Below, one piece after another: positions 8,604 through 38,900 of a stretch of DNA of 64,000 nucleotides. Every line of letters starts with the position of its first letter. Position 1 is the stretch's first letter. The notes beneath the pieces were generated by a model. It was not told the DNA's origin. It saw only the letters and a list, made by a program, of their open reading frames with translations, and did no database searches. This stretch comes from Rhodospirillales bacterium (GTDB lineage Bacteria > Pseudomonadota > Alphaproteobacteria > Bin95), in NCBI GenBank assembly GCA_038143065.1, contig JAYQLI010000035.1, positions 448,001 to 512,000 on the forward strand. Reading direction: 5' to 3'. The position numbers and the translations under genes were made by a program.

Positions 8604-11600
8604 TCAGTTTGGAAATTCGGGAGGTGGCGATGGTGGTGAGGGCTCGTCTTGGGTACTCGTAGGGGCCGGTAAAACATCTCGCAAAATACCAGGGGCAAAA
8701 GTGCTTAGGGTACTGATTGTAAATTCTGGATCTTCCAATGGGCCAAATGCTCTGTAATTTGTGGCAAAAATTCCTTCTTCTCCTGTTCCTGTAACTATTT
8801 GGCGAAGAAGGGGAAGTTGATCAAAAAGAGGTAAGCTATCGATTGTTCGAGTGATTACATAGGCTGGAGATATTGCTCCCTCAATTTCAAAAGTGTCGTT
8901 GCGAATATCAATTTCACCTTTTGCAGAGATTGCTAATGCGTTTCCTTCAGCTCTTCCACTTTTAATTTCTATAAGTCCCAACTTGTATGTACCGTCGAGC
9001 TCCAGGTGGTCAAAACGTATTGCGTCTCCGCCATCAATTATTGAAAGGAGAAGGGTGCCTGTTAATCCTCCAACATTTCGAAGCTCTGATAGTAAGCTGG
9101 TGTCATCGTCTCCAATTAGTTTTCGGATTGCTGTTTTTTTAAAGTCAAATTCATCTGCTTTGAAATTTATTTTTAAATTCGCGTTTTCATTTTCCTCTAT
9201 AGTGAGGAGTGCAGTTCCCGCCTCCGCGGCCGAAGTTATTCCCATGGCATCAAGCAATCGACCAAAGTTACTTGCACTGATTAGGACTGCTGGAGGATTG
9301 CTCGGCAGTGAACTTGCTTTAATAACGCCTCCTTTATAATAGGCTTCAGCATCAAGAAATTTAGGCAGTCTAGGGTCATCCAAGAAAACTACATGCACGT
9401 CATCGATTGAAAAGTTTTCAGAGACCCTCACGCGATCAAGATCAATTTCAATCGTGTGGTCGCCTTCAAAGTTTTCAGGTTTTTTTTCTCTTGATCGATT
9501 TGTTTCTTCATAGAGATCACTGGCCGGTAATCGAAACTTTTTCCCCAAATTCTCGTGCGCTCTTTACCATCTGATGATGCTATAAAATTCATCTTAAGAT
9601 TATGGCCGAGGCCCACTAGCCGGCTAATCTCTGCAACTTTTATTGAGTTATTTTCTTTTTGAAATTCTACTCGTGCAGATAAATCGAAGTCTTGCGAAGA
9701 AAGTTGAATATCTTCCAGTTTCTCAAGTTTACCATTGTTCAGCATCAAAACAGCACGGAAATTACCAGGGACCTTGGGCTCTTTATGATAGCCAAGTTTT
9801 TCTATGGAAACTTCGGAAGGTTCGATATCCGCTTCAATTTTAATCTCCATACGATCATCTTTTGCAGCAATGACATTAAAATTTGTGGGACTTAGGCCCT
9901 TAACCATATCTTTTAAAATGGATGCTTGATCGCTAAGGGCACTCCTAACTTTTTCGTCGAGTAACCAAGTGCCATTAAAAAGACTTTTCTGATTCTTTGA
10001 GTCAAAAGGTATAAAACCGTCAAACTTGATCGGGGCTTCTAATAGTTGGCCTTTCCCCGCTAGTCGCAGGTCATCCTGATTTACTGAAATATTTAATATT
10101 TCAGCAGTTAAATCCCAACCGTTTATGCTTCTAGGAAAAAGACCATTCGATACCTCACCATCCGCAGAAATCGCGACATCACTTAAGGTAAGGTCCTTTT
10201 TTAATGGGAAAGAAATTTTAAGTTCGCCCTTTACCAAGCCATCGGTTTCTTCGGCTTTAACCCCTAACCAACTTGCATATCGAAGAGGATCCGCTTCCAG
10301 AACATGTAATAAATCTGGTATGGGCCCAGTAATATTGCCAACTATGGACAATGCGCTGTTTGCACTTCCGAGTTCAGTAAATTTTAAGTCTATTTTATTG
10401 GAGGTCTGCTCGCTACTGGTGGCCGCATTTACGTGAAGGTCTAGCGTATCACCTTCAAAATACCCGGTGCCACTTACTTCTGTAGCTACAGGCATCGGCT
10501 CCCAGTAACGTACAGTGAGGCTTTCTGCCGAAAAGCTACCTGAAACCTTCGCCGGCTGGTTGTTTGTTTTGCTGATACTGAAGTTACTGTTTGTAACTTT
10601 GCCTAAAGATAGATTTTCTTTCACCCAGAGACGGCCGCCACTTGCTAGGTTCTGAGGCCATATTTTGGATAATTTTTCTACAGGAAAACTTCCGGTTTGA
10701 ATATTTCCCAAGAAACCAAAAAGATTTCCATTTTTTCCAAGTTTTAGATTGGCTTCACCCTGAGCATCTATGCCAGAAATAATTGATTTTACGTCGTAAA
10801 CTAAAATTGAATTAGAATTTGCGTCGAATTGGAGCTTGGCTTCAGTTTCGGTGAATTCGATTTTTTCACTAAATTCTTTTGAATTCGTATATTGGCCATA
10901 TGCTTGAATACGGCTACGTGCAGTCGTCAATTTGTTTTCTGAGATACCGAAATTGAAGTCAGCTTTGATATTTCCACCCAGACCACTTAACTGTTGATTG
11001 TCGACGTCTAGAATGTTGAGAAAATATTGAATATTGCCGCTTTTGACTTGGCCAATAATATCGTAGGTACCTGATTTTTGGGCACTGTTGTTTTGGATGA
11101 TATTAGCTTCCAGAACAACATCAGAAAGTTCTTTGCCCAATTTGAGGCTTTTTACAACTATCTGCCCGGCTCCAAAATCAGCTGATATTTCAGCTGAAGC
11201 ATCACCAACTGCTATTTTTTCTTCCCTCAGGCAGGAATAGATGAGTACTTAGTGTTGAGATGGATGCATTGGCGGTTGAGCCGTTCAAATCCTGGTCAAA
11301 GTCAAATCGCACATCACCTGAGATTTTTCCCGTGAATTCTCCAAGTTTATAATCGAGGAGACGACCTACTTGTGAAACAGAACCTAAGTCATTGTTGTTT
11401 AGACTAACGGTAAAAAAGCCGCCTTTTCCTTTGGATAGAGACACAGTGGCTTTCAGAGGACCTGAAGGAATATCTAGATTTGGGACAATATCTGTCCAAA
11501 ACACTATGTGTTCGGGTGTTAGCGTGAGTCCTAAATTTGTTTTTGCAGAGAATAATTCATCGTTTGTAGTCTCATCAACGACTGTTAACGATGCTTCTTC

Positions 11601-20197: not shown

Positions 20198-21859
20198 TTA
20201 TCGTGGAATGAAACGAGATCGGCGATCTTCCACGTTGGCAGCCACCTCTATCAAAACAGCTTTACCTGACGCATTTAGGCGCTGTGCTTCAACCAGAGCT
20301 GGTTCCAATTCTGATATTTTAGATACTTTAATGCCAACAGCCCCCATACCCTCGGCTATTTTCGCATAATCGCCATGCATTGTTGAAACCCCATAGATTT
20401 CACGGGCTTCTTTACCAATGGTACCTTGGGTTGGTCCTGAGTAGGTTGCCATTGCACTATTATTTAATAGAACAGTCGTTATTACTGCGCCCGATCGAGC
20501 GGAAGTCTCTATATCGGTGCCTGACATTCCAAAAGCCCCATCTCCCATAAGGTTCAGGCAAAACTTTTCGGGCTCTGCCATTTTCGCCCCAATCATTAAA
20601 GGAATTCCAAACCCTAAATGAGTTGTTTTACCCCATCCAATATAGCTATGAGGGGTGGTTGCTCTATAGAACGGTACAATCGTATCCCTTGGTGCCCCTG
20701 CATCATGGGTTACGATGCTTTTATCTGGATCGAGTGCATCATTTAAAGCTTGAATCACTCTATAATAGCTAATTGGTTCTTCATTTCCTTCAAGGATTGG
20801 GCTCCATTCTGCCATCCATTTTGCCTTAGCGTCAGAAACAGCGCTTTCAACTTGTGTTCGGTTACCGCAGCCCGTTCCATTAGTCTTTGTTTTTATCGTA
20901 GCGATTAGAGCTTCTATTGTAAGTTTTGTGTCGCCTACCAATCCGATGTCGGCAGCCTCATCCTTGTTTAGATCATCTGGATTATTGGTATTGTGGATTA
21001 TCGTTTTTCCCGCATGTACCTTTTGAGCATAGGGTGAGCGGGTCAGGCTTGAGCCTAAAGCCACTAAAACATCACTTTCAAGTAGCCATTCATGCGCGGG
21101 GTAGGTTGTTGTCCCACTACCTGCACCTAAGCTCAACGGATGGCGTTCATCAATCGCTGATTTTCCAGGCATTGTGCAAAATACGGGTATTGAAGTTAGT
21201 TCAGCTAATTCGCGAAGTTCATTAGTTGCTTGTGAAAAGAGAACCCCAGCTCCAGCCCATATTACTGGCCTTTTAGCGGCGATAATTGCGTCTGCTGCCG
21301 CCTCAATATCTACCAACTCCGGTACTTGACGGACTAATTTCGGGGATTTGTAAGACTGGGCAGCCTCAGGCACTTCCTGTGAGCAGACATCAGCGGTCAA
21401 CTCAACAACAACCGGACCTGGGGCTCCATTGCGTAGAGCATGAAAAGCCCTGCGCATCACATCAGCAACCTGGTTAGGAGTATAAATTGCCTCAACGTGC
21501 TTTACCCAGCCATGGTAATTACGAGCTGCACTGAAGTTTGGCTTAACAGAAATCCGATCAAGTGTATTTCCACCGACAAAAGCCAAAATTGGAATATTGT
21601 CGGCGTAAGCTTGTGCCAATCCTCCCATGGCATTCTCTGCCCCCGCTTGGCTTTGGACAGCCACGACGCCAAATTTCTGGCGATCACTAATGCGACTATA
21701 TCCATCAGCTGCCATTACAGCGCCGCGCTCATGGCGGAAGGCTATTGGTCTAATGCCTACCTTAGCCGCTGCCGTAATAAGCGGGTTGCTTGGGAAACAT
21801 GACATCCACTCAACACCTTCTTGTTTAAGAATTTGAGCGATGTAATCAATGCCATTCAT
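20198..21859 (-). CDS. Thiamine diphosphate-dependent enzyme (acetolactate synthase-like family)
   Basis: FRHERGAVMAADGY, PGPVVVEL, GDGAFGM...LLNN ThDP-binding motif. Confidence 0.9.
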   Translation of the reverse strand: MNGIDYIAQILKQEGVEWMSCFPSNPLITAAAKVGIRPIAFRHERGAVMAADGYSRISDRQKFGVVAVQSQAGAENAMGGLAQAYADNIPILAFVGGNTLDRISVKPNFSAARNYHGWVKHVEAIYTPNQVADVMRRAFHALRNGAPGPVVVELTADVCSQEVPEAAQSYKSPKLVRQVPELVDIEAAADAIIAAKRPVIWAGAGVLFSQATNELRELAELTSIPVFCTMPGKSAIDERHPLSLGAGSGTTTYPAHEWLLESDVLVALGSSLTRSPYAQKVHAGKTIIHNTNNPDDLNKDEAADIGLVGDTKLTIEALIATIKTKTNGTGCGNRTQVESAVSDAKAKWMAEWSPILEGNEEPISYYRVIQALNDALDPDKSIVTHDAGAPRDTIVPFYRATTPHSYIGWGKTTHLGFGIPLMIGAKMAEPEKFCLNLMGDGAFGMSGTDIETSARSGAVITTVLLNNSAMATYSGPTQGTIGKEAREIYGVSTMHGDYAKIAEGMGAVGIKVSKISELEPALVEAQRLNASGKAVLIEVAANVEDRRSRFIPR

Positions 21860-22017
21860 GGATGTGTTCCCTTAGGTGGTTGCGGTGCAAAAAAGCAATT
21901 AAGCCTTCGTTTAATATTAAAAAGTTCTTTTTAAAATTTACTCGACGTCGATCGCATACAGTGCCAGGCTACTATAAGTTTAACGGAAAATTCATCCATA
22001 AATATACAGAGGTTTTT

Positions 22018-22785
22018 ATGCGTAAGAATAAAATTAAGGAGATGTGGCGCGATGGGAAACATGCGACGCTTGGTTGGCTATCGGTTTCTCATGGTTTTAC
22101 AGCTGAAGTGATGGCCCGACAGGGGTTTGATGCCTTGTGTGTTGATTTGCAACACGGTTTATCGGAGATGAAAGATGTCGCTCCAATGTTGCAAGCGATT
22201 TCTCAAACAGAAACGGTTCCTGTGGTACGAGTCGCTTGGAACGATCCCGCTGCAATAATGAAAGCGCTCGATCTTGGCGCATATGGAATCATTGTGCCGC
22301 TTGTAAATAATGCTGAAGAGGCAGCAGCTGCCGTGTCAGCCTGCAGGTATCCCCCAATAGGAATGCGGTCTTCTGGGCCGGTGAGGGCTCTGCACTATGG
22401 AGGGTCAGATTATTTTGATCATGCTAACGACGAAATAGTCGTAATGGCAATGATTGAAACAAAGCAGGGCATCGAAAATTTGGATGAAATTTGTGCGACC
22501 CCTGGGCTTGACGCGGTGTACATCGGGCCAGCGGACTTATCGTTCGCTTTGGGAATGCCTCCACGAGCAGATAACCCAGATGAGCTTCATTTAGAAACCT
22601 GTGACAGGATTTTGGCTGCAGCTCATAAACATGGGATTAAAGCTGTAATGCATTGCGCTAGTGGAGAATTTGCTGCGGGTGCTGTCAAACGTGGTTTTGA
22701 CATGGTTATGCTCACATCTGATATCGCTAGTATGGCTGCAGGTGCAAAAAACCAACTTGATACTTTTAAGACCAAAACAGCCTAA
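22018..22785 (+). CDS. HpcH/HpaI aldolase family protein
   Basis: VDLQHG, PVVRV, ALDLGAYGIIVP, RYPPIGMRS, MIET, YIGPADL; ATG 22018 has SD GAGG. Confidence 0.92.
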   Translation: MRKNKIKEMWRDGKHATLGWLSVSHGFTAEVMARQGFDALCVDLQHGLSEMKDVAPMLQAISQTETVPVVRVAWNDPAAIMKALDLGAYGIIVPLVNNAEEAAAAVSACRYPPIGMRSSGPVRALHYGGSDYFDHANDEIVVMAMIETKQGIENLDEICATPGLDAVYIGPADLSFALGMPPRADNPDELHLETCDRILAAAHKHGIKAVMHCASGEFAAGAVKRGFDMVMLTSDIASMAAGAKNQLDTFKTKTA

Positions 22786-22837
22786 CTTTGCTTTGAGTAC
22801 AAAAGTACGATGACACCACATAGTATGGTGGCCAAGT

Positions 22838-22867
22838 TATCCGGGTGGCAGCGTCGTCATCCGGATA
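22838..22867. terminator. Hairpin between convergent genes
   Basis: TATCCGGGTGGC..GTCATCCGGATA stem (with G-U pairs) between stops at 22785 and 22869. Confidence 0.4.
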
Positions 22868-22868
22868 C

Positions 22869-23660
22869 TTATTGTGTTAAATGATCTTTTAACAACTTAT
22901 TGAATGCGTCGACATGTTCGAGAGACGCTAAATGATGCGCAGGATCAAGCCATTCAAGCTTTGAATTCTTTATTTTTGTGGCGAGTAAGTTACTTGTTTC
23001 AATGGGCACGCCAGGATCATTTTGCGATGCGCATACAAGCGTTGGGATTCTAAAATTTGGAAGATATTCCAAGGTGTTCAATTCGCACATGGCATCGGTG
23101 ATTGATGCAAAACTTTTTGGGTGCATATCATCAAGTTTTGAAGACATGTAAGAGTAACCATCGATCTTCTTTTCGATAGCTTCATCAGTAAACCAACGTT
23201 TCAAAAGGTCCTGCTTTATAGATTTCATTCCTTGTTTCATTACTAAAGCTGAGCGTGTCTTCCACAGTTGTTTTTGATCCTCAGAATAGATTGGGGTTGT
23301 ATTCAGCAAACATAATGATTGAACGCGTTTAGGATGATGAGCGGTAAGCATTTGGCTTATCATTCCACCCATTGATACTCCTACAATGTGCGCTTGAGAA
23401 ATATTGAGGTAGTCCATTAGTCCTACCAAATCAGAACATAATAAATTCAGAGAATAGGGGCCTTCTGTTCTTGTGCTAGCACCATGGCCTCTCACATCAA
23501 TGCAGATGGTATGAAAGCCCTCTGTAGCAGGTATATGAGGGCGCCAATATTTATGGTCTGCACAAAAGCAATGCAGCATAATAACGGTTGGGGAGCCTTG
23601 TGATCCGTGTTGTGAATAGGCGAGTTCTATCCCATTCGTGGTGGCATATTTGATGGACAT
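22869..23660 (-). CDS. Alpha/beta hydrolase, 3-oxoadipate enol-lactonase (PcaD)-like
   Basis: DVRGHGAS, GPYSL, GVSMGGM nucleophile elbow, RWFT, HLASLE. Confidence 0.85.
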   Translation of the reverse strand: MSIKYATTNGIELAYSQHGSQGSPTVIMLHCFCADHKYWRPHIPATEGFHTICIDVRGHGASTRTEGPYSLNLLCSDLVGLMDYLNISQAHIVGVSMGGMISQMLTAHHPKRVQSLCLLNTTPIYSEDQKQLWKTRSALVMKQGMKSIKQDLLKRWFTDEAIEKKIDGYSYMSSKLDDMHPKSFASITDAMCELNTLEYLPNFRIPTLVCASQNDPGVPIETSNLLATKIKNSKLEWLDPAHHLASLEHVDAFNKLLKDHLTQ

Positions 23661-23686
23661 CGAGTTTATCTGCTTAGTTTTAAGAC

Positions 23687-24501
23687 TTAGGTGCTACTTA
23701 TTCGATCAATATGTTTTTTGAGGAGTGAGTTGAATTCTCTTGGTCTCTCAACGTTCGAGAAATGCTTCTGGCCATCGATAACATGAATGCTGGAGTTATT
23801 TATTTCTCTGTGCATCAGTTCTGATAAGGCCGGAGGAGTTACTTCATCATCTCCTGCTGCAATTATAGTAGTTGGGCATTTAATTTCCCGCAGTTTCGGT
23901 AGATAGTTTAGATCGCAAACTGCTGAAGTCCCACCAAGATAACCAACAGGGTTTGTGGATACAAAAATTTCGCGAATTTTTTCATACTCTTTTGAAGCTT
24001 TGTTTATGAAGTCATCCGTAAACCAAAGTCTTTTGGTCATTTCCCAGACTGGTGCCATTCCCTCTTTTCTTACTACCACTTGACGATCTGCAACCCATTG
24101 TCTGTACCCATCGGAGGCTTGGGGGTCGTATTACACAAACATAAACTATTAACCCTATTCGGAAATTTTATGGCTAATCCTTGTCCAATCATTCCACCCG
24201 TAGAGATACCAACCCAATTTATGGTTTTTATATTTAAGGCATCCAAAACGGCGACAGCATCATCAACAAATTCTGATAATGTGTAAGGGCCAGGTGGGGC
24301 TGACGAGTGACCATGTCCTCGCCAGTCATATGCAATTACCCTGAAATTTTCGGATAGCACAGCAATTTGTTGATCCCAAATGCGTAAACTTGTTCCCATT
24401 GCGTGCGCGAGTAAAATTGGTGGCGCTGAGATAGGTCCATGCTCTTCATAGTGAAATCTCAGATCGCCATTTGAAATAATTTTTCTATTTTGATCATCCA
24501 C
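23687..24501 (-). CDS. Alpha/beta hydrolase, PcaD-like (frameshift ~24115)
   Basis: HAMGTSLRIWDQQ, YDWRGHGHS, GISTGGMIG; C-terminal GDDEVTP, HFSNVERP in ORF 23687..24079. Confidence 0.82.
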
Positions 24502-25526
24502 TATATAGCCTCCTCACCATCAAAATATTTGACAATTACTTTGCCCTGATGGGAGCCGGAAAGCATTCCATTTAATGCATCTACAGTGTTGCGAAGACCA
24601 GAAATTACCTGGTGATGACTTGTAATTAGTTTTTGTTCACAAAGAAGTTTCATCTGCTTTTGGGCAAATTTCCAACGCTCTGGATATGAATATCGCGAAA
24701 ATCCATAGACCGTTGCTTCTTTCGCCCATAGTTGCCGCATATTTACCATATCAATTTCAGGGTTCTCAGAAATATTTGAAATAGTTCTGCCAACTACAAG
24801 TACGCGGGCGTGTTTTGCGAGGTATTCAAAGATCGTGTCTGTAACTGGGCCCCCTGTTGTATCAAAGACCTGATGGATCCCGTTAGTGCAAATATCGCTA
24901 AGGTGGTTCACAAAAGATGGGTTGTTATAATTCAAACAAAAATCTGCCTTTAAATTTTGTTCAACAAATTTGCACTTTGAATCAGATCCGCAAACACCGA
25001 TAACGTTCATGTTTGCCAACTTGCCGAGTTGGACTGCATACATTCCAACTGCGGCAGCTGCCGACGTTACGACCATAGTTTGACCAGGTGTATTTCTGCC
25101 AAAAAGGTCAAGGCAAGTATAGGCTGTTAGCCCCGGGGAACTAAGTGCAGTTAGTGATAAAAGTGGGTCATTTAGTTCTGGAATTGGTGAGATTTCAGCG
25201 GGGGAAACATCGGCATATCTCTGCCATCCAAGTCGGCCAACTACATGCTGACCAATTTTTAACTTACCTGTATATGAGGAATGTATTTGAATAATCTCAC
25301 CAAGAACATCACAATCGATCAACTCACCAATTTCGAATGGTGTTGTATAGTTCTTGAAGTCCTTCATTCGTTGCAATTGCCATGGAGAAAGCGCAACGTA
25401 ATTTATCCGTATTCTGATAGCGCTATCTCTTAATTCTCCCATAACTATCTGAGAAATTTCAAAATCATCTGGTGCCGGCAAGCCTACTGGCCGTTTTTTG
25501 AGGATGATTTGTTCATTTAACAACAT
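24501..25526 (-). CDS. NADP-dependent oxidoreductase (prostaglandin reductase/CurA-like MDR family)
   Basis: KRPVGLP..DF, LGWQRYA, PGLTAY, SAAAAVG, GSDSKC, GKVIV. Confidence 0.85.
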   Translation of the reverse strand: MLLNEQIILKKRPVGLPAPDDFEISQIVMGELRDSAIRIRINYVALSPWQLQRMKDFKNYTTPFEIGELIDCDVLGEIIQIHSSYTGKLKIGQHVVGRLGWQRYADVSPAEISPIPELNDPLLSLTALSSPGLTAYTCLDLFGRNTPGQTMVVTSAAAAVGMYAVQLGKLANMNVIGVCGSDSKCKFVEQNLKADFCLNYNNPSFVNHLSDICTNGIHQVFDTTGGPVTDTIFEYLAKHARVLVVGRTISNISENPEIDMVNMRQLWAKEATVYGFSRYSYPERWKFAQKQMKLLCEQKLITSHHQVISGLRNTVDALNGMLSGSHQGKVIVKYFDGEEAI

Positions 25527-25697
25527 GAGTTTGAAGCACCTTTTAATTTTGGAATTCTTAAATAACTCATAGAGCGCCGCAAGTGTCAGACGAGGAATTT
25601 TTGTTTGGGCTCAATGGTTTGGGAACTTTGAGAGTGGCCCTTTTAGTTTATGAAGCGTCAAGCTGACTTAAAAGTTTGAGTATATATGCACACCCTT

Positions 25698-26630
25698 TTA
25701 TGAGCTCAGACGGCGGTCCTTGGCCTGCTGATAATAGGTGAGATCAAGATATTTGGATGGATCATTAAGCTGGCGTCCACCATATTGGCTTCGAAGCTCG
25801 AGAACGGTGTTAAACCCGTTTTGATCTATGCTAGCGAATGGGGTTAATCCGGTATCCGGAGAAAGTAGTTTGTCCATTACTTTATCGATAGCTTTAGCGT
25901 TGATGTTAGGCATATTGCGGAGAAGAATTTCAGTCGCAGTCTGTCTGTTTTCAGAGTCCAATGTCCATTCCAGACTATTCAGATACCCTGTGATAAAACC
26001 AAGAAGCGCTTCACTATTTCCTTTTGCCCAATTCTTTCGCGCTGCAAAGCTACCACCCTGATAGGCTTTTACTGTTTGTAGGCTCGATTCCAGAATTTTG
26101 AACCCGGCAGCCTTGGCCATGGCAGTGAAGGGTTCAATGGTTAGGGTCCCTATATGTTCACCAGTTTTTACAGATTCCCATCTCTCAGGTGTTGCCCCAA
26201 CGGCAACCATAGTTATGTCGTTTAGATCGACACCAGCATTTTCCAGCATCCGATATAAAATAAAGGCAAAGCCCGTGGACAAAGCATCCAAGGCAATAGT
26301 TTTGCCTCTTAAGTCAGCGAAGCTTTGAATATCTGGCGAGACAACGAAAGACAGTTCCAACTGTGTTGCGCCCATAAAGGCAAAAATATCCGATTTCTCG
26401 CTTAAAGTAATAGCTCCCTGATTTTCTGTGTAGGCTACAACGTTATCGATGGCCGTGCCTGCGATTTGATACTTTCCCTTCATGAGGTGCTCAATCTGAT
26501 AGACCGAACTAGGCGTTGTATTCAAATTTGCTCTAACCCCTGCGGCTTCAAAAAATCCCAATTCTTGGCCGACAAAAATTGGTAAATTTGGTGCGCCTGG
26601 AAAATTGATTAATTGCAAATCAATAGTCAT
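25698..26630 (-). CDS. NMT1/THI5-like ABC substrate-binding protein
   Basis: FPGAPNLP..GFF, TAIDNVVAY, DLRGKTIALDALSTGFAF, GATPER. Confidence 0.82.
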   Translation of the reverse strand: MTIDLQLINFPGAPNLPIFVGQELGFFEAAGVRANLNTTPSSVYQIEHLMKGKYQIAGTAIDNVVAYTENQGAITLSEKSDIFAFMGATQLELSFVVSPDIQSFADLRGKTIALDALSTGFAFILYRMLENAGVDLNDITMVAVGATPERWESVKTGEHIGTLTIEPFTAMAKAAGFKILESSLQTVKAYQGGSFAARKNWAKGNSEALLGFITGYLNSLEWTLDSENRQTATEILLRNMPNINAKAIDKVMDKLLSPDTGLTPFASIDQNGFNTVLELRSQYGGRQLNDPSKYLDLTYYQQAKDRRLSS

Positions 26631-26643
26631 CGAAAAATCCTTT

Positions 26644-29033
26644 TTAATGGTCTTCTGGTCGATGGATTGCTTGCCAGACTTTTAATGGGGTAATTGGCAT
26701 CTTTAGATCGCGCACCCCATAAGGCCGGAGCGCATCTACTAAAGCATTAACGACTGCGGCTAGTGCGCCCGTTGTACCGCCTTCGCCGCCAGCCTTGACC
26801 CCAAGCGGGTTAGTGGGTGAGGGGACCTCGTTAAGTGCAGTAATAAACATGGGGAAGTGGTCGGCTCGTGGCATGCCGTAGTCCATAAAACTTCCACACA
26901 TTGGCTGACCAGTTTTTGGATCAATGGCACATTGCTCGAAAAGAGCCTGACCAATTCCTTGTACCGCGCCTCCGTGGGTCTGACCTTCAACGATTAGAGG
27001 GTTGATTGCACGGCCTACATCATCGATGGCTACATACTTGGTAATAGTCATGCAGCATGTTTCGGGATCTACCTCTATCTCACAGACTTGGGCGCCGTTA
27101 GGAAATACTTGGGTATGCATCTCGTTACTGAGGCGCACTTGCAAAGGACCTTTTAAATTGTCTGGTAGTCTGGCCTGAAATGCTGGATCAGTCAGAGCAG
27201 ATGCTATTTCAAACAGGTCGAGTGTTTTGTTTCCATTAATTGTTGAGAAAATGCCGTCAGAAAACTCGATTTTGTCTCTGTCCACATTCATTAAAAAAGC
27301 AGCAATTCTTTTGCTGCGGTCAATCAATTCATCGGCGGCTTTTACAATCACTGTTCCAGCCATCCGCATGGACCGTCCGGAATGAGATCCTCCGCCATGT
27401 TTCACAATTTCTGTATCGCCTAGAATAATGTTTATCCTGTCCACGGGAATGCTTAGCCAGTCTGCTGCAACTTGAGCAAAGCTAGTTTCATGTCCCTGAC
27501 CGCTAGGCTGAGTACCAATGATGACTTCAGCATAACCGGGAGAGTTGGAGTTCGGCGCTTTGATATTAATAACGGCCTCTTCAACTGGCGATCCGGTTGA
27601 TGACTCAACGTAGTTGCAAAATCCCCGTCCCAATAGTTTGCCGCGTGCTTCTGCTTTTGCCCTGCGGTCGTCAAAATTATCCCAATCAGCCAGCTGTATG
27701 GCGATTTCCATATTACGTTTGTAGTCTCCAGAGTCATACTGTGCGCCAATTGGATTGCGATATGGCATCTGGCAAGACTGGATCAAATTGCGCTGCCGAA
27801 GTTCGATAGGATCGAAGCCAAAATCATGAGCTGCTGTATCGATTAGACGTTCAATTGCAAAGGTTACCTCTGGCCGACCTGATGAACGATAAGCCTGAGT
27901 TGGAACAGTATTTGAGAAAACTGCGCGGGCACGGACCGTTGCCGCCGGAATGTGGTAATTTCCAGAAACCAGTGCGGAGCCTTTGCCTAAGGGTGAGAGA
28001 GAAACGATGCGTGCACCAACGTTAGAAATGTTGTCTGCACGCATTGCCAGAAACCTCCCGGTATCATCCATGGCAAGTTCAACTTTGGTCACCAGGTCAC
28101 GCCCTTGATAATCAGATAGAAAAGCTTCCGATCGATCACAGGTAAATTTTACCGGTTTGCCGAGAACTAAGGCTGCATGAACAACTAATGGGAAACTCCA
28201 CGTAAACACGATTGCGGGTTCCAAAATTTCCGCCGACATCTTTGGAGATAACCCGAAGTTTATCGGCCTCTAATCCAAGAGTTTTTATAATCTCATTTTT
28301 TTGGCGTACGGCACCGCCGCTACCGGCGTAGAGAGTAATTGTTCCTGTTGCCAGATTAGGAACCGCCAAGAGCACTTCTTGGTTCTAAGGGTACTCCGGT
28401 CACGCGATCAACATGAAAGTCCATTTGTATTATGTGTGCAGCATTGGCAAATGCCCTGTCGGTAGCTGCTGGATCACCGAAAATCTTATCGACGGGAGTA
28501 TTTCCTGGCACTTCCTCCCAGATTGCTGGCTTATTAACTTCCGCTGCTGAGATTGTGTTTGTCACCCAAGGCAGTTGCTCGTATTCGATCTCTAATGCTT
28601 CTGCTGCGTCTTTGGCTTGGTGGCGTGTATTTGCAACAACCATTGCAACGGCCTCTCCCACGTGCCGCGCCTTATCATAAGGGAGAGGAATATGTGGACC
28701 GATAAATATATCGCTATCATTAGGGCCGCGAAGTTTTAGATCATTGTCAGTCTTGGGAATAGGATTGTGCGGAATTCCCTCCATGTCCGCTGATTGACAG
28801 TCGGCGCCCGTGATGACTAAGCGCACACCATCCATCGCCATAACAGCATCTTTTTTAATCGAAACGATGCGCGCATGCGGATAGGGTGACCGAACCATGA
28901 CGGCATAGAGCTGTCCCGACAACGAAAAATCATCACTGAACGAGCCTCTGCCCGTGACCAGCCGAAAATCCTCTTTCCGCTTGTTTGGCCGCCCAATTTC
29001 CCGAAACTTGGCTACCAAGGGCTCATTGGGCAT
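26644..29033 (-). CDS. Xanthine dehydrogenase family molybdopterin-binding large subunit (two apparent frameshifts ~28360 and ~28190)
   Basis: RKEDFRLVTGRG, VRSPYPHARI, DVGGNFG, AYRSSGRPE, GQGHETSFAQ, GGSHSGRS, NPLIVEGQTHGG, GVKAGGEGG. Confidence 0.9.
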
Positions 29034-29059
29034 TTATTCTACTCACCAGATTGATGGTC

Positions 29060-30027
29060 TCAAACAGAGAAGACTGTTGAGCCTGTTGTCTCTCTAGCTT
29101 CAAGCGCTCGGTGGGCCTCTTTAACCTCACTCAGAGCGTATGTTTGATTTATTTCAATCTTTACGCCATCACGCACAGCTGTGAACAAAGCGTTAGCGAT
29201 TTCGAGGGTTAGTTCGCGCGTGGCTGTGTGTGGTGCCAGTCCAGGGCGTGTGAAATACAAGGCCTTGCTGGCAAGTGATGCTCCCGACACTGGTGCTATA
29301 GCTCCAGATGCCGCACCGAAGTTCACATAAGTGCCAAAGCGCCCTAGGCAGTCTAGGGAACCTTCTTGGACTGCTGCCCCAACGCCATCATATACGACTG
29401 GTAGGCCATCGCCGCTGGTCAACTCCAAAACTTGTTTTGTAAAATCCTCACGAGTGTAAACAATTGGGTGATCACAGCCATAGGCTTTGGCTAGTTCTGC
29501 CTTTTCGTCGCTGCCAACCGTACCAATTACCCTAACGCCTCTTTGCTTGAGCCACTGACAGGCAATCAAGCCAACACCGCCAGCTGCTGCGTGTACTAGA
29601 GCAGTCTCGCCAGCTTGAACTTTATAGGTTCGATTAATCAGGTAGGAGACCGTCAATCCTTTCAGCAGCATACCTGCGGCTTGCGTGTCACTAACGTCGT
29701 CTGGCAGTGGGATAAGTCGCTCCGCAGGGTATACGCGTTCTTCGGCATAGGAACCTGGGGGCCCATGACATATCCGACCCTACTACCCACCTTAACGTGG
29801 TCTACTCCTTCACCAATCGCTTCGACAACGCCAACGCCCTCCATGCCAATGCGAGCAGGTAGGTCTAATTTGTATCCTCCAGAGCGTTGATAGACATCAA
29901 TATAGTTTAAGCCTACAGCTGTTTGTCTGATTAAGGCCTCACCGGGCTTAGGGTTTACCTCGGCTACTTTTTCCCAGCGCATCACCTCAGGACCGCCTTG
30001 TTCATAGACTTGTATTGCATAAGGCAT
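29060..30027 (-). CDS. qor: NADPH:quinone oxidoreductase (zeta-crystallin family; frameshift ~29760)
   Basis: GGPEVM, GLNYIDVYQRSG, HAAAGGVG, VYDGVG, NFGAASG, LEARETTGS. Confidence 0.88.
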
Positions 30028-30228
30028 CGAAATTAACCCTCCAGAGAATAAGACAGATAGTTTTTGCAACTAAGCCGCTATGAATACCAAGTAATTTTTG
30101 TCATCCGCAAAAATCATAGCAATCTTATTATGCAAAGAAGATTTACCTGCTGAGCGCTTTTTGGATAGGAGAATGTGATAAAAAATCTGTTGATAGGCGT
30201 TCTTCAGTGACATGGCGGCAGTTGAGGC

Positions 30229-31404
30229 TCATTTCTGTAGCGTTAGACGTATAAGCTGCCCGTCAGGCGAGTCCGTCAGGATATATAAATAGCCGTCTGG
30301 TCCTTGGCGAACATCACGAATGCGTTCCTCTAGATCCGTCAGAATCCTCTCTTCACCGACGACTTTTTCTCCACGAAGGGTAAGGCGCACTAACATCTGG
30401 TCCTTCAAAGCACCGATAAAGAGATTGTCTTTCCAAGCTGGAAAGACAGCCCCTGTATAGAACGCCATCCCCGATGGCGCGATGGACGGGTCCCAATAGT
30501 AGATGGGTTGTTCCATGCCGTCTTTGTGCGTGCCCTCACCGATCTTCAGTCCGGAATAATGACGCCCATAGGATATAATGGGCCAGCCATAATTCCGCCC
30601 GGCGCGTGGTATGTTGATTTCGTCGCCGCCGCGTGCGCCATGTTCGACTGTCCATAATTCGCCTGTGGTTGGATGTAGTGCGGCGCCTTGTGGATTGCGG
30701 TGTCCCATGGACCAGACTTCGGGGCGGTGACTCGGCCTACCGAAAAATGGATTATTCTTTGGAACAGTACCGTCCGGTTTGATCCGGTTGATTTGGCCGC
30801 GATTGATTTTTGGATTTTGAACCTGGTCTCGTTGTCCCCGGTCACCGGTCGTGATGAACAAATTTCCGTCGCGCGCGATCACGATACGAGAGCCGAAATG
30901 CCGCCCGTCGTCTGATTTCGGGTGTTGGGAAAACAGAACACGCACGTCCCTCAAAGACATGGTCGGCAGGTCTAATACAGCGCGTGCCAAAGCCGTGCCG
31001 CTGCCATCGGGGCCTGGCTCAGAATATGTAAAATAGATGAGGCCGCTCTCAGAGAAGTTAGGGCTGAGTGCGATGTCCAACAGCCCACCTTGTCCTTCGG
31101 CTATAATCTTGGGCAATCCGGAAATTGGATCAGATAAGGTGCCATTGGCAGAAACGATGCGAAGCAGCCCGGACCGCTCGGTTACCAAAAATCTGTTGTC
31201 AGGCAAAAACGCAAGGCCCCAGGGGTGATCCAAGTCGCTGGTGATTGCCTGAAGCCTTACGGTGTAATGTTTTGTTGGAATTAGCGTTTTGGCGGAAAGA
31301 GATGCGCCATTCCAAAGAGAGCAGGTTAACAGGGAAATAAAAAACACAAGCATGTAGCGTTGATCGTCTAAAGTCCTGCGCTTCATTGCCTTTCTCTCCG
31401 CCAT
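30229..31404 (-). CDS. PQQ-dependent sugar dehydrogenase (soluble aldose sugar dehydrogenase, YliI-like)
   Basis: HPWGLAFLPD, GQGGLLDI, HFGSRI, GHRNPQG, EHGARGGDEIN, NYGWP, SIAPSGM, RIRDVRQGPDG; signal peptide; true start may be 31386 or 31353. Confidence 0.92.
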   Translation of the reverse strand: MAERKAMKRRTLDDQRYMLVFFISLLTCSLWNGASLSAKTLIPTKHYTVRLQAITSDLDHPWGLAFLPDNRFLVTERSGLLRIVSANGTLSDPISGLPKIIAEGQGGLLDIALSPNFSESGLIYFTYSEPGPDGSGTALARAVLDLPTMSLRDVRVLFSQHPKSDDGRHFGSRIVIARDGNLFITTGDRGQRDQVQNPKINRGQINRIKPDGTVPKNNPFFGRPSHRPEVWSMGHRNPQGAALHPTTGELWTVEHGARGGDEINIPRAGRNYGWPIISYGRHYSGLKIGEGTHKDGMEQPIYYWDPSIAPSGMAFYTGAVFPAWKDNLFIGALKDQMLVRLTLRGEKVVGEERILTDLEERIRDVRQGPDGYLYILTDSPDGQLIRLTLQK

Positions 31405-31422
31405 AAATTGGCGATAACCATC
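31393..31422 (+). repeat. Left arm of 30-bp inverted repeat (copy of tRNA-Ser 3' end plus trailer)
   Basis: TCTCTCCGCCATAAATTGGCGATAACCATC is the exact reverse complement of 32049-32078. Confidence 0.93.
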
Positions 31423-31439
31423 TGATTAATGCAAAGAGT

Positions 31440-31467
31440 GTGAACCAGATGGATTGCGCTGGTTCAC
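31440..31467 (-). terminator. Hairpin downstream of the lipoprotein gene
   Basis: 9-bp perfect stem GTGAACCAG/CTGGTTCAC with 10-nt loop, followed by ACTCTTT on the minus strand. Confidence 0.5.
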
Positions 31468-31508
31468 GCCTAAGCTTGTACTGGTAATTAAATCCGAACC
31501 ACGCGGAC

Positions 31509-31904
31509 TTATTTTTTAGGTGTCAAAGTAATGTTTACCGGTGAGGTGTATTTGTTATCAGCACCGGTTGCAGAGTCTATTCCCCAACCAACTACACCTC
31601 CGAGAAGAATGTTTCCTAAAGTTGCTTTAGCGTTTCCGGATTTGTTTATGTAGGTGGTTTCGTCATAACCATCTTTGTTACATCTAATCGTAATATCTTC
31701 TTTCGTTTTAGAAACTAATGCTGCTCCGGGTGTTGGATTGACACGAGCAATGTTTGTTCCCTTTCGTTCTACTCCACAATCAGCACCTGAAGGATTTGTA
31801 TTGATTACAATTTCCTGACTGGTGCCATCCACAATTGTTGAACACGCTCCTAAAGATAGAGACGAGACAACTAGAGCGAGAGACAAACCCTTCTTGAGAT
31901 CCAT
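31509..31904 (-). CDS. Small predicted lipoprotein of unknown function
   Basis: Signal peptide with lipobox LGAC; GTSQEIVINTNPSGADC, GNILLGGVVGWGIDSATGA..Y glycine-rich segment; visibly AT-rich. Confidence 0.8.
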   Translation of the reverse strand: MDLKKGLSLALVVSSLSLGACSTIVDGTSQEIVINTNPSGADCGVERKGTNIARVNPTPGAALVSKTKEDITIRCNKDGYDETTYINKSGNAKATLGNILLGGVVGWGIDSATGADNKYTSPVNITLTPKK

Positions 31905-31937
31905 TTTTAATTTCCATCAAACTTATCAATTTAGGAG

Positions 31938-31967
31938 ATTTCAAACCCATTTTGACCAACTGTCAAA
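31938..31967 (-). promoter_or_regulatory. Candidate sigma70 promoter with palindromic operator for the lipoprotein gene
   Basis: Minus strand TTGACA(31966-31961)-17 nt-TGAAAT(31943-31938); dyad TTTGAC-N5-GTCAAA at 31951-31967 overlaps the -35. Confidence 0.5.
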
Positions 31968-32048
31968 CCGCTATCTTCTTAATCAATTCATGCCATTGGA
32001 CCAAGGCTGCTTGATTGTTTGAAGTTTGTCATCCTCAATACAGATACT

Positions 32049-32078
32049 GATGGTTATCGCCAATTTATGGCGGAGAGA
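32049..32078 (-). repeat. Right arm of 30-bp inverted repeat (overlaps tRNA-Ser 3' end)
   Basis: GATGGTTATCGCCAATTTATGGCGGAGAGA; includes the last 11 nt of the tRNA and 19 nt of trailer. Confidence 0.93.
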
Positions 32079-32157
32079 GAGGGATTCGAACCCTCGAAGG
32101 ACTTGCGCCCTTAACGGTTTTCGAGACCGCCCCATTCAACCACTCTGGCACCTCTCC
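32068..32157 (-). tRNA. tRNA-Ser(CGA)
   Basis: GGAGAGG..; anticodon arm GCGGT-CTCGAAA-ACCGT; long variable arm; GAGGG TTCGAAT CCCTC; encoded CCA; 90 nt. Confidence 0.97.
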
Positions 32158-32260
32158 ATGGTGAGTTAGAGGTCTAACTCTCAAGGCCGCGGAAGTTAGC
32201 TGAGTAGATAGGTGCGTGCAAGCGCTTGAAACTCTTTAAAACGGAAGTTCCTTCTACACG

Positions 32261-32938
32261 TCATGCAACTGGTAAAAGTGTCGATACGTAAGTTTCCCTT
32301 CGGGTTAGATTTGCCTGGAATTCCTTTTCAAAAACATCGGCTACTGACCCTTTAACAGTCTCACATTCCATTAAGTTTAATGCCCACTTCTTTGTATTGG
32401 GATATGCATCTAATAGATGTGTTTTGAGGAACTGGTCAGCAAATAAAAAACGTTGAAAGAATGGGGCATACGCTGCGTCCACAAGACATAATTTGTCTCC
32501 ACCAAAATATAGGCCTTCGCTCTTATCGACCGATAAGGCGTATTCAACGCGGTCCAGTCTCTTTGTGGCTGTTTCGTACAAAACCTCTGAATCAGCTTTA
32601 GTTTTGGCGTAATAGACAGCAGAAAGACTTGCAGCAAAATCTGAAACAAAATCAGTCCAAGCCCTATGGCGTGCTTTTAATATTGGGTCAGATGGATGAA
32701 GTCGTGGTTCAACTGCTTCGTCTAAGTATTCGGCAATAGCGTTTGACTCAAACAATGGCACTTCATCTACAAGTAACACTGGGACCTTGCCGTGAGGCGA
32801 GATTTTTAGAAACCAGTCCGGCTTGTCACGAAGATTGATATAAGTGGTTTTAAATTTCACACCTTTTGCACGCAGGGCAATCACGGCCCTTTGAACCCAA
32901 GGTCAGGTGTATGAACTAATTAAATGTAATTTAGGCAT
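32261..32938 (-). CDS. Glutathione S-transferase family protein, predicted selenoprotein (UGA at 32903-32905 read as Sec)
   Basis: SD AAGGA, ATG 32938: MPKLHLISSYT-UGA-PWVQRAVIAL; then KPDWFLKISPHGKVPVL, LFESNAIAEYLDE, LVDAAYAPF. Confidence 0.88.
32874..32905 (-). promoter_or_regulatory. Candidate bacterial SECIS element of the GST gene
   Basis: UGA + 12 nt + stem AGGGC/GCCCU with loop CGUGAUU. Confidence 0.55.
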
Positions 32939-32966: not shown

Positions 32967-34570
32967 CTAATCAGCAGCATCTGCAAGAAGCATATCTGAA
33001 CCTTTTTCGCCTATCATAATTGCAGTGGAGTTAGTATTTGCTGTCGTAACTGCAGGCATTACTGATGCGTCAATGACACGGAGTCCTTGAACCCCACGGA
33101 CCTTTAATTGAGGATCCACTACGGCCATCTTGTCGTCTTCTGGTCCCATCTTACACACACCGACTGGGTGATAAATTGTATTGCCAGTTTGACGTGCAAA
33201 GTCAGCGATTTCATCGTCGGATTGAATCTCCCTGCCTGGTAAAGTTTCTCCTACAGAATACGGTTGGAACGCAGGTTGGGAAAAAATCTTTCGTGCTTGT
33301 CGAACTCCTTCAACTACGACGCGCACATCGTTTTCCGCGGACATGTAGTTAGGCCTAATTATTGGGTATTCTCTAGGATCTGAAGACTGCGCCATTATCG
33401 TCCCGCGGCTTTCAGGTCGGGCAATGGAACAGGCGATTGTCATTCCTGGTTCCTTTTCCAGCGCCCCAAATTTCTGGGGATCATAGCTCGCGGGTGAGAA
33501 GAGTAGTTGTATGTCAGGGCTAGCTAGGCCTTCACGACTATGGGTAAATACCTGAGCTGATGAAACACCAAAGGTAAGCGCCCCGCGTCCTTCAACGAAA
33601 AAAAGCGAACACCTTCGCGCATGAGGCGTAAGCCGCGAGACAATTGGTTTATCGAAACCGCATCTTTAGCTCTATGAGAGACACGAGCGATATAGTGGTC
33701 AGAAAGGTTTTGACCAACTCCAGGTAAATCATGGAGGGGTTCAACCCCAATAGTTTTTAAATGCTCAGCGGAGCCAACCCCTGATATTTGAAGAAGGTGC
33801 GGAGAGTTCACTGAGCCTCCAGCAAGAATTACTTCGGCGTTCGCCCTGACTTCGTTTGACTTATTGCCCTGAGAAAACGCTACTCCAATGCACTTTTTGC
33901 CCTCAAAAAGTAGTTTTGTTGCTAGCGCGTTAGTTATGATTTGAATATTTTCTTTATTCTTAACCTTCGAAAGATAAGTTTGAGCAGTTGAGCCACGCCT
34001 GCGGCCAATTTCTTGACATTTGGGAATACCCTACGCCAACACGCTCGTAGCCATTCAAGTCTTCTGCAAAAGGATGTCCAGCTTGTTGGGCAGCTTCGAC
34101 GAATTGGTGGGTTAATGGAAGAATCGTTCTGTAATCTTCTACCTGAAGAGGGCCATCCGCCCTCTGGTTTCACCAGTTCCTGATACGTAGCTTTCCGATC
34201 TTCTGAAGTAAGGTAAAACATCATCATATGACCAGCCACGGCACCCTGATTGCGCCCAGCTATCGTAGTCTGCCTGATGGCCTCTGATATAAAGCATGCC
34301 ATTGATTGAAGATGAACCACCTAAGGTTTTTCCTCTGGGCCAGTGGATTTCCCTTCCAGCAGTGCCTTTTTCGCCTTCTGAGTGATAATTCCAATTAAGC
34401 TTTGGATGATACAGCAGCTTTAGTATTCCAGCAGGAATATGTATCCATGGGTGAATGTCCTTTGGACCAGCTTCCAGAAGAACAACGTGCTTGCCTGCTT
34501 CTGCGAGACGCATTGCCACTACGCAGCCAGCAGAGCCTGCGCCTACTACAACATATTCTGCATTCATCAC
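32967..34570 (-). CDS. GMC family FAD oxidoreductase (choline dehydrogenase-like), split by several apparent frameshifts
   Basis: VVVGAGSAGC, PRGKTLGGSSSINGMLYIRG, NSPHLLQISGVG, LPGVGQNLSDH, YHPVGVCKMG, LRVIDASVMP..ANTNS. Confidence 0.88.
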
Positions 34571-38519: not shown

Positions 38520-38815
38520 GCGAGGGGTTTTCTGTTGCCCGGTAACCCCCAAACCGCGCTTACTTAATTTACCTTACGGTAGATTACGCAGCGATTGCGA
38601 CTTCATTGTCGTTCGCAACTAGGTTTTTGAGCCGATAACGGCGGCATCGCACCGAGCAAAAACTACGTCTTTACCGCGCACGTCGAGCCTGGTTCGCCCC
38701 CATCAGAGCTAGTCGGACAATGCGCTAGCTAATTTGGTGGAGGCGCCGGGTACTGCCCCGGGTCCGTAACGCTTATTTCACGCAGCGTTTATCGCCATAG
38801 ACGGGCAAAGCCCGA
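38520..38815 (-). ncRNA. ssrA: Circularly permuted two-piece tmRNA
   Basis: Acceptor piece ending GGCAGTACCCGGCGCCTCCACCA (CCA at 38737-38735), 33-nt intervening segment, coding piece starting GGGGGCGAA..GGCTCGACG (38701), tag ORF ANDNEVAIAA* at 38616-38584; outer ends approximate. Confidence 0.95.
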
Positions 38816-38900
38816 CATCTAGGAATATACGCGTGATCACCCCATGTTAAAAGTGCATTGATCAAGTTAGATCTGGTTTTTCAGTGGAGTGGGGATAGCC

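Follow-up and report, generated by a model that had tools for sequence, protein, structure and literature searches.

Why should the 3′ end of a transfer RNA (tRNA) gene reappear in inverted orientation close to that gene, with a small gene enclosed between the two copies? The question is raised by a segment of a 64,000-nucleotide (nt) stretch of DNA from a Rhodospirillales bacterium, hereafter the window (G000:C35:448001-512000), which lies inside a 2.86-Mb contig of the source genome, G000, an assembly of 4.63 Mb in 52 contigs. In it a tRNA-Ser(CGA) gene, a gene for a putative lipoprotein and a gene for a PQQ-type dehydrogenase follow one another, and the two arms of an inverted repeat bracket the lipoprotein gene (Table 1). 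The original prediction, made from the window alone, was that the bracketed segment might be a phase-variation switch or a site of cassette exchange. The reading favoured here, with a probability of about 0.55, is that the segment represents what is left of an integrase head module at a tRNA-Ser(CGA) integration hotspot, and that it is now probably static.

An inverted repeat anchored in a tRNA-Ser gene

The arms are complementary at 33 of 34 positions and perfectly so over 30 nt; a repeat finder and the sequence itself both gave this result, at the same coordinates as the original prediction. The perfect 30-mer is made up of 11 nt of the tRNA 3′ end, including the CCA, and 19 nt of trailer, with 15 nt of tRNA included if one mismatch is allowed. 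This composition, as first described, fits the ARAGORN and Rfam placements of the tRNA, and the internal dyad that had been reported, CGCCA-TAAAT-TGGCG, is present within the 30-mer. Within the window a 29-mer core has exactly two occurrences, one per strand, and none of 100 dinucleotide-preserving shuffles yielded any match to it. Direct copies of the core were also sought in the window; nine matches with up to two mismatches were found against 4.4 expected, none beyond chance, and a search of the window for the distal direct repeat (attR) of an island likewise gave nothing above chance. Thus no direct core repeats flank an element here, both copies in the window being inverted. According to whole-genome ARAGORN the tRNA is the sole CGA isoacceptor of G000, whose tRNA-Ser set comprises gga, gct, cga and tga, one each.

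The left arm belongs to a longer repeated element, here called X, of which it forms just the outer end; this element, like a third copy of the motif, had been overlooked in the original prediction. The X′ arm of this element contains a 9-bp hairpin, GTGAACCAG..CTGGTTCAC, and the last ~85 nt of X overlap the 3′ end of the lipoprotein open reading frame (ORF). The tRNA-side trailer shares only 19 nt with X and diverges thereafter. When the whole of G000 was searched, the third motif copy was found at C35:4422-4450 with mismatches at 3 of 29 positions, making three copies in 4.63 Mb; around it, C35:4407-4574 is 75% identical to X over ~170 nt at a distance of ~475 kb. As in the window, this distant copy lies against the 3′ end of a small co-directional gene, and the ~85-nt tail is common to both. 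All three copies are of the TAAATTGG variant and share CGCCA-TAAAT-TGGCG with the same putative spacer TAAAT, while CGCCATGAATAGGCG is found in G008, the closest species genome, and in the majority of metagenome copies.

Two other identities for X were considered and set aside. The Rfam matches at gathering threshold in the window and in L003 were to tRNA and tmRNA only; X is not a member of a known RNA family. The repeat is flanked by a tRNA gene on one side and a start codon on the other; no target-site duplication was seen and there are only three motif copies, so that a miniature inverted-repeat transposable element, or an insertion sequence with terminal inverted repeats, was rejected.

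Attachment-type arms and the integrases that they bracket

Outside G000 the motif recurs between tRNA-Ser genes and integrase genes, and the 30-mer is therefore regarded as an att-type sequence. On the evidence of these junctions, both arms of the window are att-type sequence of a tRNA-Ser-targeting tyrosine-integrase family (DUF6538 + Phage_integrase), and the expectation that they consist of recombination-site DNA is borne out, since in relatives the motif joins tRNA-Ser genes to a tyrosine integrase. The 19-nt trailer of the right arm is identical to the 19 nt with which, at occupied sites (attL type), the element arm behind tRNA-Ser begins. Further properties of an attachment site were found as well: a tRNA 3′ end at the integrase junction, a tyrosine-type integrase by domain match, and both occupied and unoccupied states of the site.

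G008 is ~95% identical to the window on the upstream (right) side of the tRNA, and its tRNA-Ser(cga) and tRNA-Ser(tga) genes are both trailed by CCATGAATAGGCGATAACCATCTGATTTG, the contig ending there in each case. Only one of the 18 tRNA-Ser loci compared among relatives has the motif, that of G008, where it continues like X until the contig end; the trailers of the tga, gga and gct genes of G000 are unrelated to it. A scan of GTDB species genomes returned G008 only (2 contigs), apart from 2 chance matches in unrelated bacteria, and a scan of metagenome contigs returned 10 loci. At five of the ten a complete tRNA-Ser gene lies upstream of the motif: tga in L052 and L058, cga in L053 and L060 (the latter apparently the record of G008) and gga in L054. 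An integrase ORF begins ~50 nt past the motif in L052, L053 and L058, with matches to DUF6538 (E 4.8e-17) and, on its C-terminal part, to Phage_integrase (E 1.8e-10); the region behind the motif in L054 is decayed. At three further loci (L055, L056, L061) the upstream sequence is a conserved non-coding “far end”, behind which come a tRNA-Ser fragment, the motif and an X′-like arm, and the remaining two (L057, L059) reproduce the left side of the window.

The two kinds of junction can be connected through the integrase. In L055 and L061 the 3′ end of an integrase directly adjoins the X′-like arm, reading toward the motif, and this integrase shares 97% identity with that of L058, which begins behind tRNA-Ser(tga). 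The first ~90 nt of X match the inverted arm behind the integrase stop codon in these metagenome contigs, and the leader and X′, both read outward from the motif, are ~70% alike. The simplest single structure that would accommodate all of these pieces runs from the tRNA through the motif, the leader and the integrase to an inverted unit of X′, motif and tRNA fragment, and then through the “far end” to the cargo, which in L055 consists of a DinB-family gene and a 299-aa ORF. The “far end”, ~430 nt long and found at G000:C35:4014-4424, L055 1567-1987 and L056, is 82-86% identical between loci and always abuts the tRNA-fragment side of the inverted arm.

In G000 the arrangement is present on a single contig, that of the window itself. 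On the minus strand of C35 a tRNA-Gly(ccc) gene (~8707-8780) is followed by a leader sharing ATAACCATTTGAT, an integrase gene (8633-7485), an inverted arm (~6130-6190), a C-terminal integrase fragment (6139-5968), two small genes (one SMR-like) and the inverted copy of X (4574-4407), which thus lies 3-4 kb downstream of the tRNA-Gly–integrase unit; past it come the “far end” and an ORF homologous to the 299-aa one. The integrase at C35:7485-8633 is 68% identical to that of L058 and is split into two frames in the assembly.

DUF6538 integrases were surveyed at 30 loci in 11 genomes. Inverted repeats of 29-150 nt, 86-97% identical, flank the integrase ORF at 8 of the 11 paralogue loci of G000 (on C36, C5, C38, C46, C37, C3 and C12, and at C35:5985-10133); none were found at the other three (C41, C27, C34). 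The arms begin with a tRNA-3′-like ...CCA at six of the eight (C5, C38, C46, C37, C3, C36), and those of C35a and C12a begin inside the trailer. Bracketed integrases were also found at tRNA-Sec in other species of the genus. In G001 (C98, L092) an 86-nt perfect pair, made up of the last 21 nt of the tRNA and 65 nt more, surrounds an intact 396-aa integrase; in G002 (C107, L093) an inverted pair matching at 95 of 99 positions surrounds a 392-aa integrase; and in G003 the pair is decayed. Between G001 and G002 the arms are only 52-55% alike, as against 62% for the integrases and 83% for the upstream flank. It follows that the arms travel with the integrase, each variant bringing its own matched pair. 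The flank of G002 past its inverted arm shares GATGAGCC(A/G)AACC with the “far end”. When G000 was used as an empty tRNA-Sec site to define the ends of the G001 and G002 units, its trailer proved unrelated and the ends could not be defined.

Taken together, these loci suggest that in this genus an integrase of the tRNA-Ser family, or of sister families directed at tRNA-Sec, tRNA-Gly and other tRNA genes, typically lies between inverted copies of a tRNA 3′ end plus trailer arm. In a full-text literature search judged by titles, no description of inverted tRNA-end arms around an integrase was found, nor was the term DUF6538. The available part of a preprint on tycheposons (10.1101/2020.12.28.424599) describes flanking partial tRNAs and an inward-facing integrase, with no inverted spare site described there. 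DUF6538 matches number 18 in G000, most of them on small contigs, and 0-4 in each of 30 relatives; G000 is either unusually loaded with DUF6538 elements or carries plasmids bearing them.

Relic, coincidence or switch

Read in the orientation of the tRNA, the window consists of tRNA-Ser(cga), the 19-nt motif, the 144-nt spacer, the lipoprotein gene, inverted X and the dehydrogenase gene. As judged from the order of these parts, this is the family layout with the lipoprotein gene in the place of the integrase: the outer ends of the arms are tRNA 3′ ends, one of them fused to a real tRNA gene, and no integrase stands between them. An intact element of the family has its integrase directly behind the tRNA, between two inverted copies of the arm, one fused to the real tRNA and the other lying upside down as a spare just past the integrase stop codon. 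In the window the tRNA-side arm would have been cut down to 19 nt, and an integrase gene once present between the arms would later have been deleted; the lipoprotein gene, with its own upstream spacer, would be the only gene left there, and the complete spare arm X would survive beside an acquired dehydrogenase gene. The region around C35:4407-4574 may serve as a useful parallel, in that a small co-directional gene precedes inverted X and an integrase fragment survives further in.

That the site is a hotspot is supported by its differing contents. The tRNA-side flanks of L053 and L057 are 99.8% identical, and behind the tRNA L053 has a truncated integrase while L057 has the lipoprotein gene and no motif; a shared flank with different content indicates a hotspot with alternative occupants. 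The tRNA-Ser(cga) site of G008 is occupied, as in L053. G008 was also considered as a source of an island border, since it lacks window positions 21578-32039; its contig ends inside a gene at 21577 and the genome is a metagenome-assembled genome of 2.6 Mb, so that this absence is uninformative. In six relatives (G001, G002, G006, G007, G009, G010; L020, L023-L027) tRNA-Ser(cga) lies ~0.2-1.4 kb from a contig end and the trailers all differ; assembly of this site is difficult, and the site varies within the family.

Several observations weigh against a relic of this kind. No remnant of an integrase was found between the arms. Members of the lipoprotein family lie beside a tRNA at none of 9 other loci, and so the family has no other link to tRNAs or to such arms. 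The two closest contigs lack the motif behind the tRNA, and the 19 nt of G000 could therefore be a later, separate scar. The term “relic of a head module” would also describe a layout rather than a mechanism. Finally, the perfection of the arms over 30 nt, their shared TAAAT and the plentiful family integrases in the genome argue against the proposed static state.

The two contigs in question, L057 and L059, come from independent metagenome assemblies and show the same order and orientation as the window: dehydrogenase, X, lipoprotein, tRNA. Their tRNA trailer is CCATATTAAAAACGC; the motif is absent, and the right arm thus does not have its 19-nt part. Therefore the inverted repeat in these contigs is the 15-nt tRNA end only, and the 34-bp pair is not a conserved feature. 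This bears most directly on the alternative that the segment holds two independent relics, inverted by chance, no integrase ever having stood between the arms. X would then be a solo att-type arm of some age that became fixed upstream of the dehydrogenase gene and is common to the G000 and L057/L059 lineages, and the 19 nt behind the G000 tRNA would be the younger scar of a separate integration followed by deletion. The occupation of tRNA-Ser(cga) by integrase elements in G008 and L053 makes integration and decay at this site plausible, and since all copies in G000 are of the TAAATTGG variant, an incoming element native to the lineage could match X by descent and not by pairing. This alternative is nevertheless considered somewhat unlikely, because a tRNA, an arm, one or more genes and an inverted X-type arm form the recurrent layout of the family, and the presence of an X-type arm ~700 nt from tRNA-Ser in the expected inverted sense would be an improbable coincidence. 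Furthermore, a single position in 34 separates the two arms, against 3 in 29 for the third copy.

Alternatively, the segment could be an active invertible or exchangeable cassette served by an integrase in trans, which would flip the lipoprotein cassette, alter read-in to the dehydrogenase gene or swap the segment with a donor. Perfect 30-bp arms with a dyad and an identical asymmetric spacer are what such a cassette would have. CGCCA/TGGCG can be inferred to be the core binding sites and TAAAT the crossover spacer; if that reading of the dyad holds, a cognate integrase acting on the identical 30-mers would invert 31423-32048 and leave the tRNA unharmed. It had been pointed out that inversion would keep the tRNA intact, and a crossover inside the 30-mer does preserve its sequence. 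The prediction was also right that the window holds no recombinase gene. No PF00589 match was found near the segment on C35, the nearest family member being at C35:7485-8633, and no serine recombinase was found in G000 (97.6% complete). The genome-wide search that had been proposed was productive, in that it gave the third motif copy, a cognate-type integrase ~470 kb away and the 18 DUF6538 matches, the last two of which also favour an active cassette. The split in this integrase is not necessarily real: in G000 the GMC oxidoreductase gene is broken up over three or more ORFs, whereas the 95%-identical G008 has it whole, as one ORF of 533 aa, and frameshifts in G000, including that of the cognate-type integrase, may therefore be assembly errors. 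Genes split over at least two frames occur at window positions 26644-29033, 29060-30069 and 32967-34570 (CoxL-like, quinone-oxidoreductase-like and GMC-oxidoreductase), and are either numerous recent pseudogenes or the product of indel errors in a long-read assembly.

The orientation data do not favour activity. The lipoprotein cassette was seen in a single orientation in G000, L057 and L059; none of the 16 tRNA-linked DUF6538 integrases among the 30 loci is flipped, all being co-directional with the tRNA just upstream of the N-terminus, and none of the 7 metagenome junctions that include integrase sequence is flipped. The proposed phase-variation switch thus finds no support at these loci. 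The right-arm 19 nt are missing from L057 and L059, and because the lipoprotein gene has its own upstream spacer, a flip would have no obvious on/off effect. The segment has the inverted repeats bounding a short stretch of DNA that are expected of an inverton, without a dedicated recombinase beside or inside it.

Differing cargo at the tRNA-Ser locus of relatives had been named as something to look for, and in the closest contigs (L059) the lipoprotein block is indeed strongly diverged; the DNA between the tRNA and X is far more diverged than the flanks, as an exchangeable cassette would predict (Table 1). However, the left border of the diverged block lies ~80 nt inside the inner edge of the left arm, so the 30-mers are not the borders of exchange, and the cassette exchange that had been placed at the arms is not upheld. 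The diverged block would be better explained by homologous recombination that replaced the allele, with the tRNA and X as anchors, than by site-specific exchange at the arms. Considering all of this, an active cassette is judged unlikely.

Public sequencing runs were uninformative on this question. The locus was found in 19 runs, the good ones among them as k=31 Logan contigs, which end at the arms: record 3 of X1 ends at 31422, record 4 covers 31433-32078, record 22 of X3 covers 31393-32078, and the right flank starts at 32071. No piece listed for the runs X1, X2, X3 and X6 bridges an arm, so that orientation cannot be read from them and they give no evidence either way. A single X6 contig joining 31365 to 32062 has a side of 23 nt and less than 95% likeness; it was taken as another organism or a repeat and was not used. 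As assembled, the dehydrogenase-side flank and arm are followed by TGATTAATG; the flipped version would read AGTATCTG.

A bolder version of activity, regarded as less probable again, holds that the 30-mers are live core sites and that DUF6538 elements of these marine Rhodospirillales carry a spare inverted att as a rule. The arms would then form a docking station for flipping or double-crossover replacement in trans, the lipoprotein gene would be a non-autonomous passenger, and the diverged L057/L059 allele would be the trace of a swap; if true, the system would be the equivalent in nature of recombinase-mediated cassette exchange.

An assembly artefact, in which a misjoin at the repeat gave rise to the left arm or set the 626-nt piece in its present orientation, would be in keeping with short-k public contigs that break exactly at the arms and with the probable indel errors of G000, but is highly improbable given that two independent contigs, L057 and L059, agree on order and orientation and that the window lies inside a 2.86-Mb contig.

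Neighbouring genes and known systems

Table 1. Features of the segment and its surroundings in window coordinates, with identities from a sliding comparison of the window with L059.
Feature	Position	Strand	Description	Identity to L059
PQQ-type glucose/sorbosone dehydrogenase gene	30229-31386	minus	Pfam GSDH, E 2.3e-142; starts 3 nt outside left arm	
Element X	31378-31546	plus	tRNA fragment, 19-nt motif, ~45-nt arm X′, ~85 nt more	97-98% (31380-31499)
Left arm	31389-31422	plus	15-nt tRNA-Ser 3′ fragment with one mismatch, then the identical 19 nt	
Lipoprotein gene	31509-31904	minus	ORF of 131 aa; starts MDLKKGLSLALVVSSLSLGAC; co-directional with tRNA	70-82% (sharp drop near 31500)
Spacer	31905-32048	minus	144 nt, unique; upstream of lipoprotein gene; promoter presumed	~45%
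Right arm	32049-32082	minus	last 15 nt of tRNA and 19-nt trailer, TAAATTGGCGATAACCATC; unique sequence beyond	
Right arm + left arm	32049-32082 and 31389-31422	inverted	repeat finder: 34 nt, 97% complementary, 626 nt apart	
tRNA-Ser(CGA)	32068-32157	minus	ARAGORN; Rfam RF00005 covers 32071-32157, 53.4 bits	100%
Diverged block	31500-32067			45-82%
Flanks				88-100%
Two-piece (permuted) alphaproteobacterial tmRNA	38521-38856	minus	247.5 bits	

The lipoprotein ORF is the only one between the arms, in agreement with the single lipoprotein gene originally placed there. Its signal peptide ends LSLGAC, in which LGAC is taken to be the lipobox. No Pfam family was matched; 230 homologues were found at E<=0.001, and the family is widespread and unnamed. 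The protein was found in 9 of 30 relatives and in 1 of the 9 genomes of the same genus. In G018 a fragment homologous to residues 49-129, with an internal TAA and 54% identity, occurs at 15 places (L072-L086), and resembles a piece of a gene on a repeat element. The spacer gave no matches in homology searches, and nothing integrase-like was found in it. A candidate promoter/operator and a terminator hairpin had been placed between the arms. The first was not recovered, as a consensus scan of 31200-32300 found no sigma-70-like promoter, promoters unlike sigma-70 being outside the reach of the scan. Nor was the second: the same scan found no intrinsic terminator, although the RNA downstream of the lipoprotein ORF contains hairpins and folds somewhat better than shuffles (z = -2.45).

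The dehydrogenase shows its best match among relatives, at 64% identity, in another family, copies from the same genus being 46-49% identical. Since the lipoprotein is found in only one of the same-genus genomes and the dehydrogenase is closer to another family, both neighbours look acquired. The longest dehydrogenase ORF starts at ATG 31404, inside the left arm; the ATG at 31386 is the likelier start. Just upstream of it the reverse complement of the left arm, GGAGAGAAAGG, may act as a ribosome-binding site, which would be a translation signal derived from a tRNA.

Taken alone, the segment in the window is of little consequence, being a decayed corner of an integration hotspot. The wider finding is that tRNA-targeting integrases in this genus are enclosed by their own attachment site, present as two inverted copies. 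If the spare copy is functional, it would add a step to the textbook growth of genomic islands at tRNA genes and would explain inverted tRNA fragments that annotation pipelines now ignore; possible functions include choice of integration orientation, control of integrase expression and provision of a place where further elements could land. One integrase with a 30-bp site would make a concrete and cheap test system.

The closest known systems are the islands of tRNA-targeting tyrosine integrases (P4/lambda-type elements and tycheposons). These too have an integrase behind the tRNA, an element that supplies the tRNA 3′ end and scattered partial tRNA copies; close relatives differ in the occupancy of one and the same tRNA site, and decayed remnants are seen. 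They differ in that the ends of a classical island are direct repeats of the tRNA 3′ end, whereas here the second copy is inverted and lies right behind the integrase or lipoprotein gene.

Invertible switches are represented by the H segment of Hin, with hin inside hixL/hixR, and by fimS with FimB/FimE. The segment resembles them in being short and lying between inverted sites, and the intact relatives keep the recombinase between the sites, like hin. In contrast to these switches, one orientation only is seen at the loci examined, the arms are joined to a tRNA gene, a recombinase gene is missing from the window, and no promoter was found by the consensus scan.

In the pdif/dif modules of Acinetobacter plasmids and in integrons, gene cassettes bounded by recombination sites are moved in trans. 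As in these, one gene lies between two sites, a tyrosine recombinase is encoded elsewhere and a divergent allele stands between conserved borders; unlike them, the sites belong to neither the Xer nor the attC kind, the genome yielded a single cassette of this type and the border of the diverged block is off the arm. Tyrosine-recombinase units with long inverted repeats are known as well, among them the RIT (recombinase-in-trio) elements. These share with the bracketed integrases the placing of tyrosine recombinase genes within inverted repeats of ~60-150 nt; the units described here differ from them in having a single recombinase and not three, in the outer ends of the repeats, which are tRNA 3′ ends, and in their anchoring at tRNA genes.

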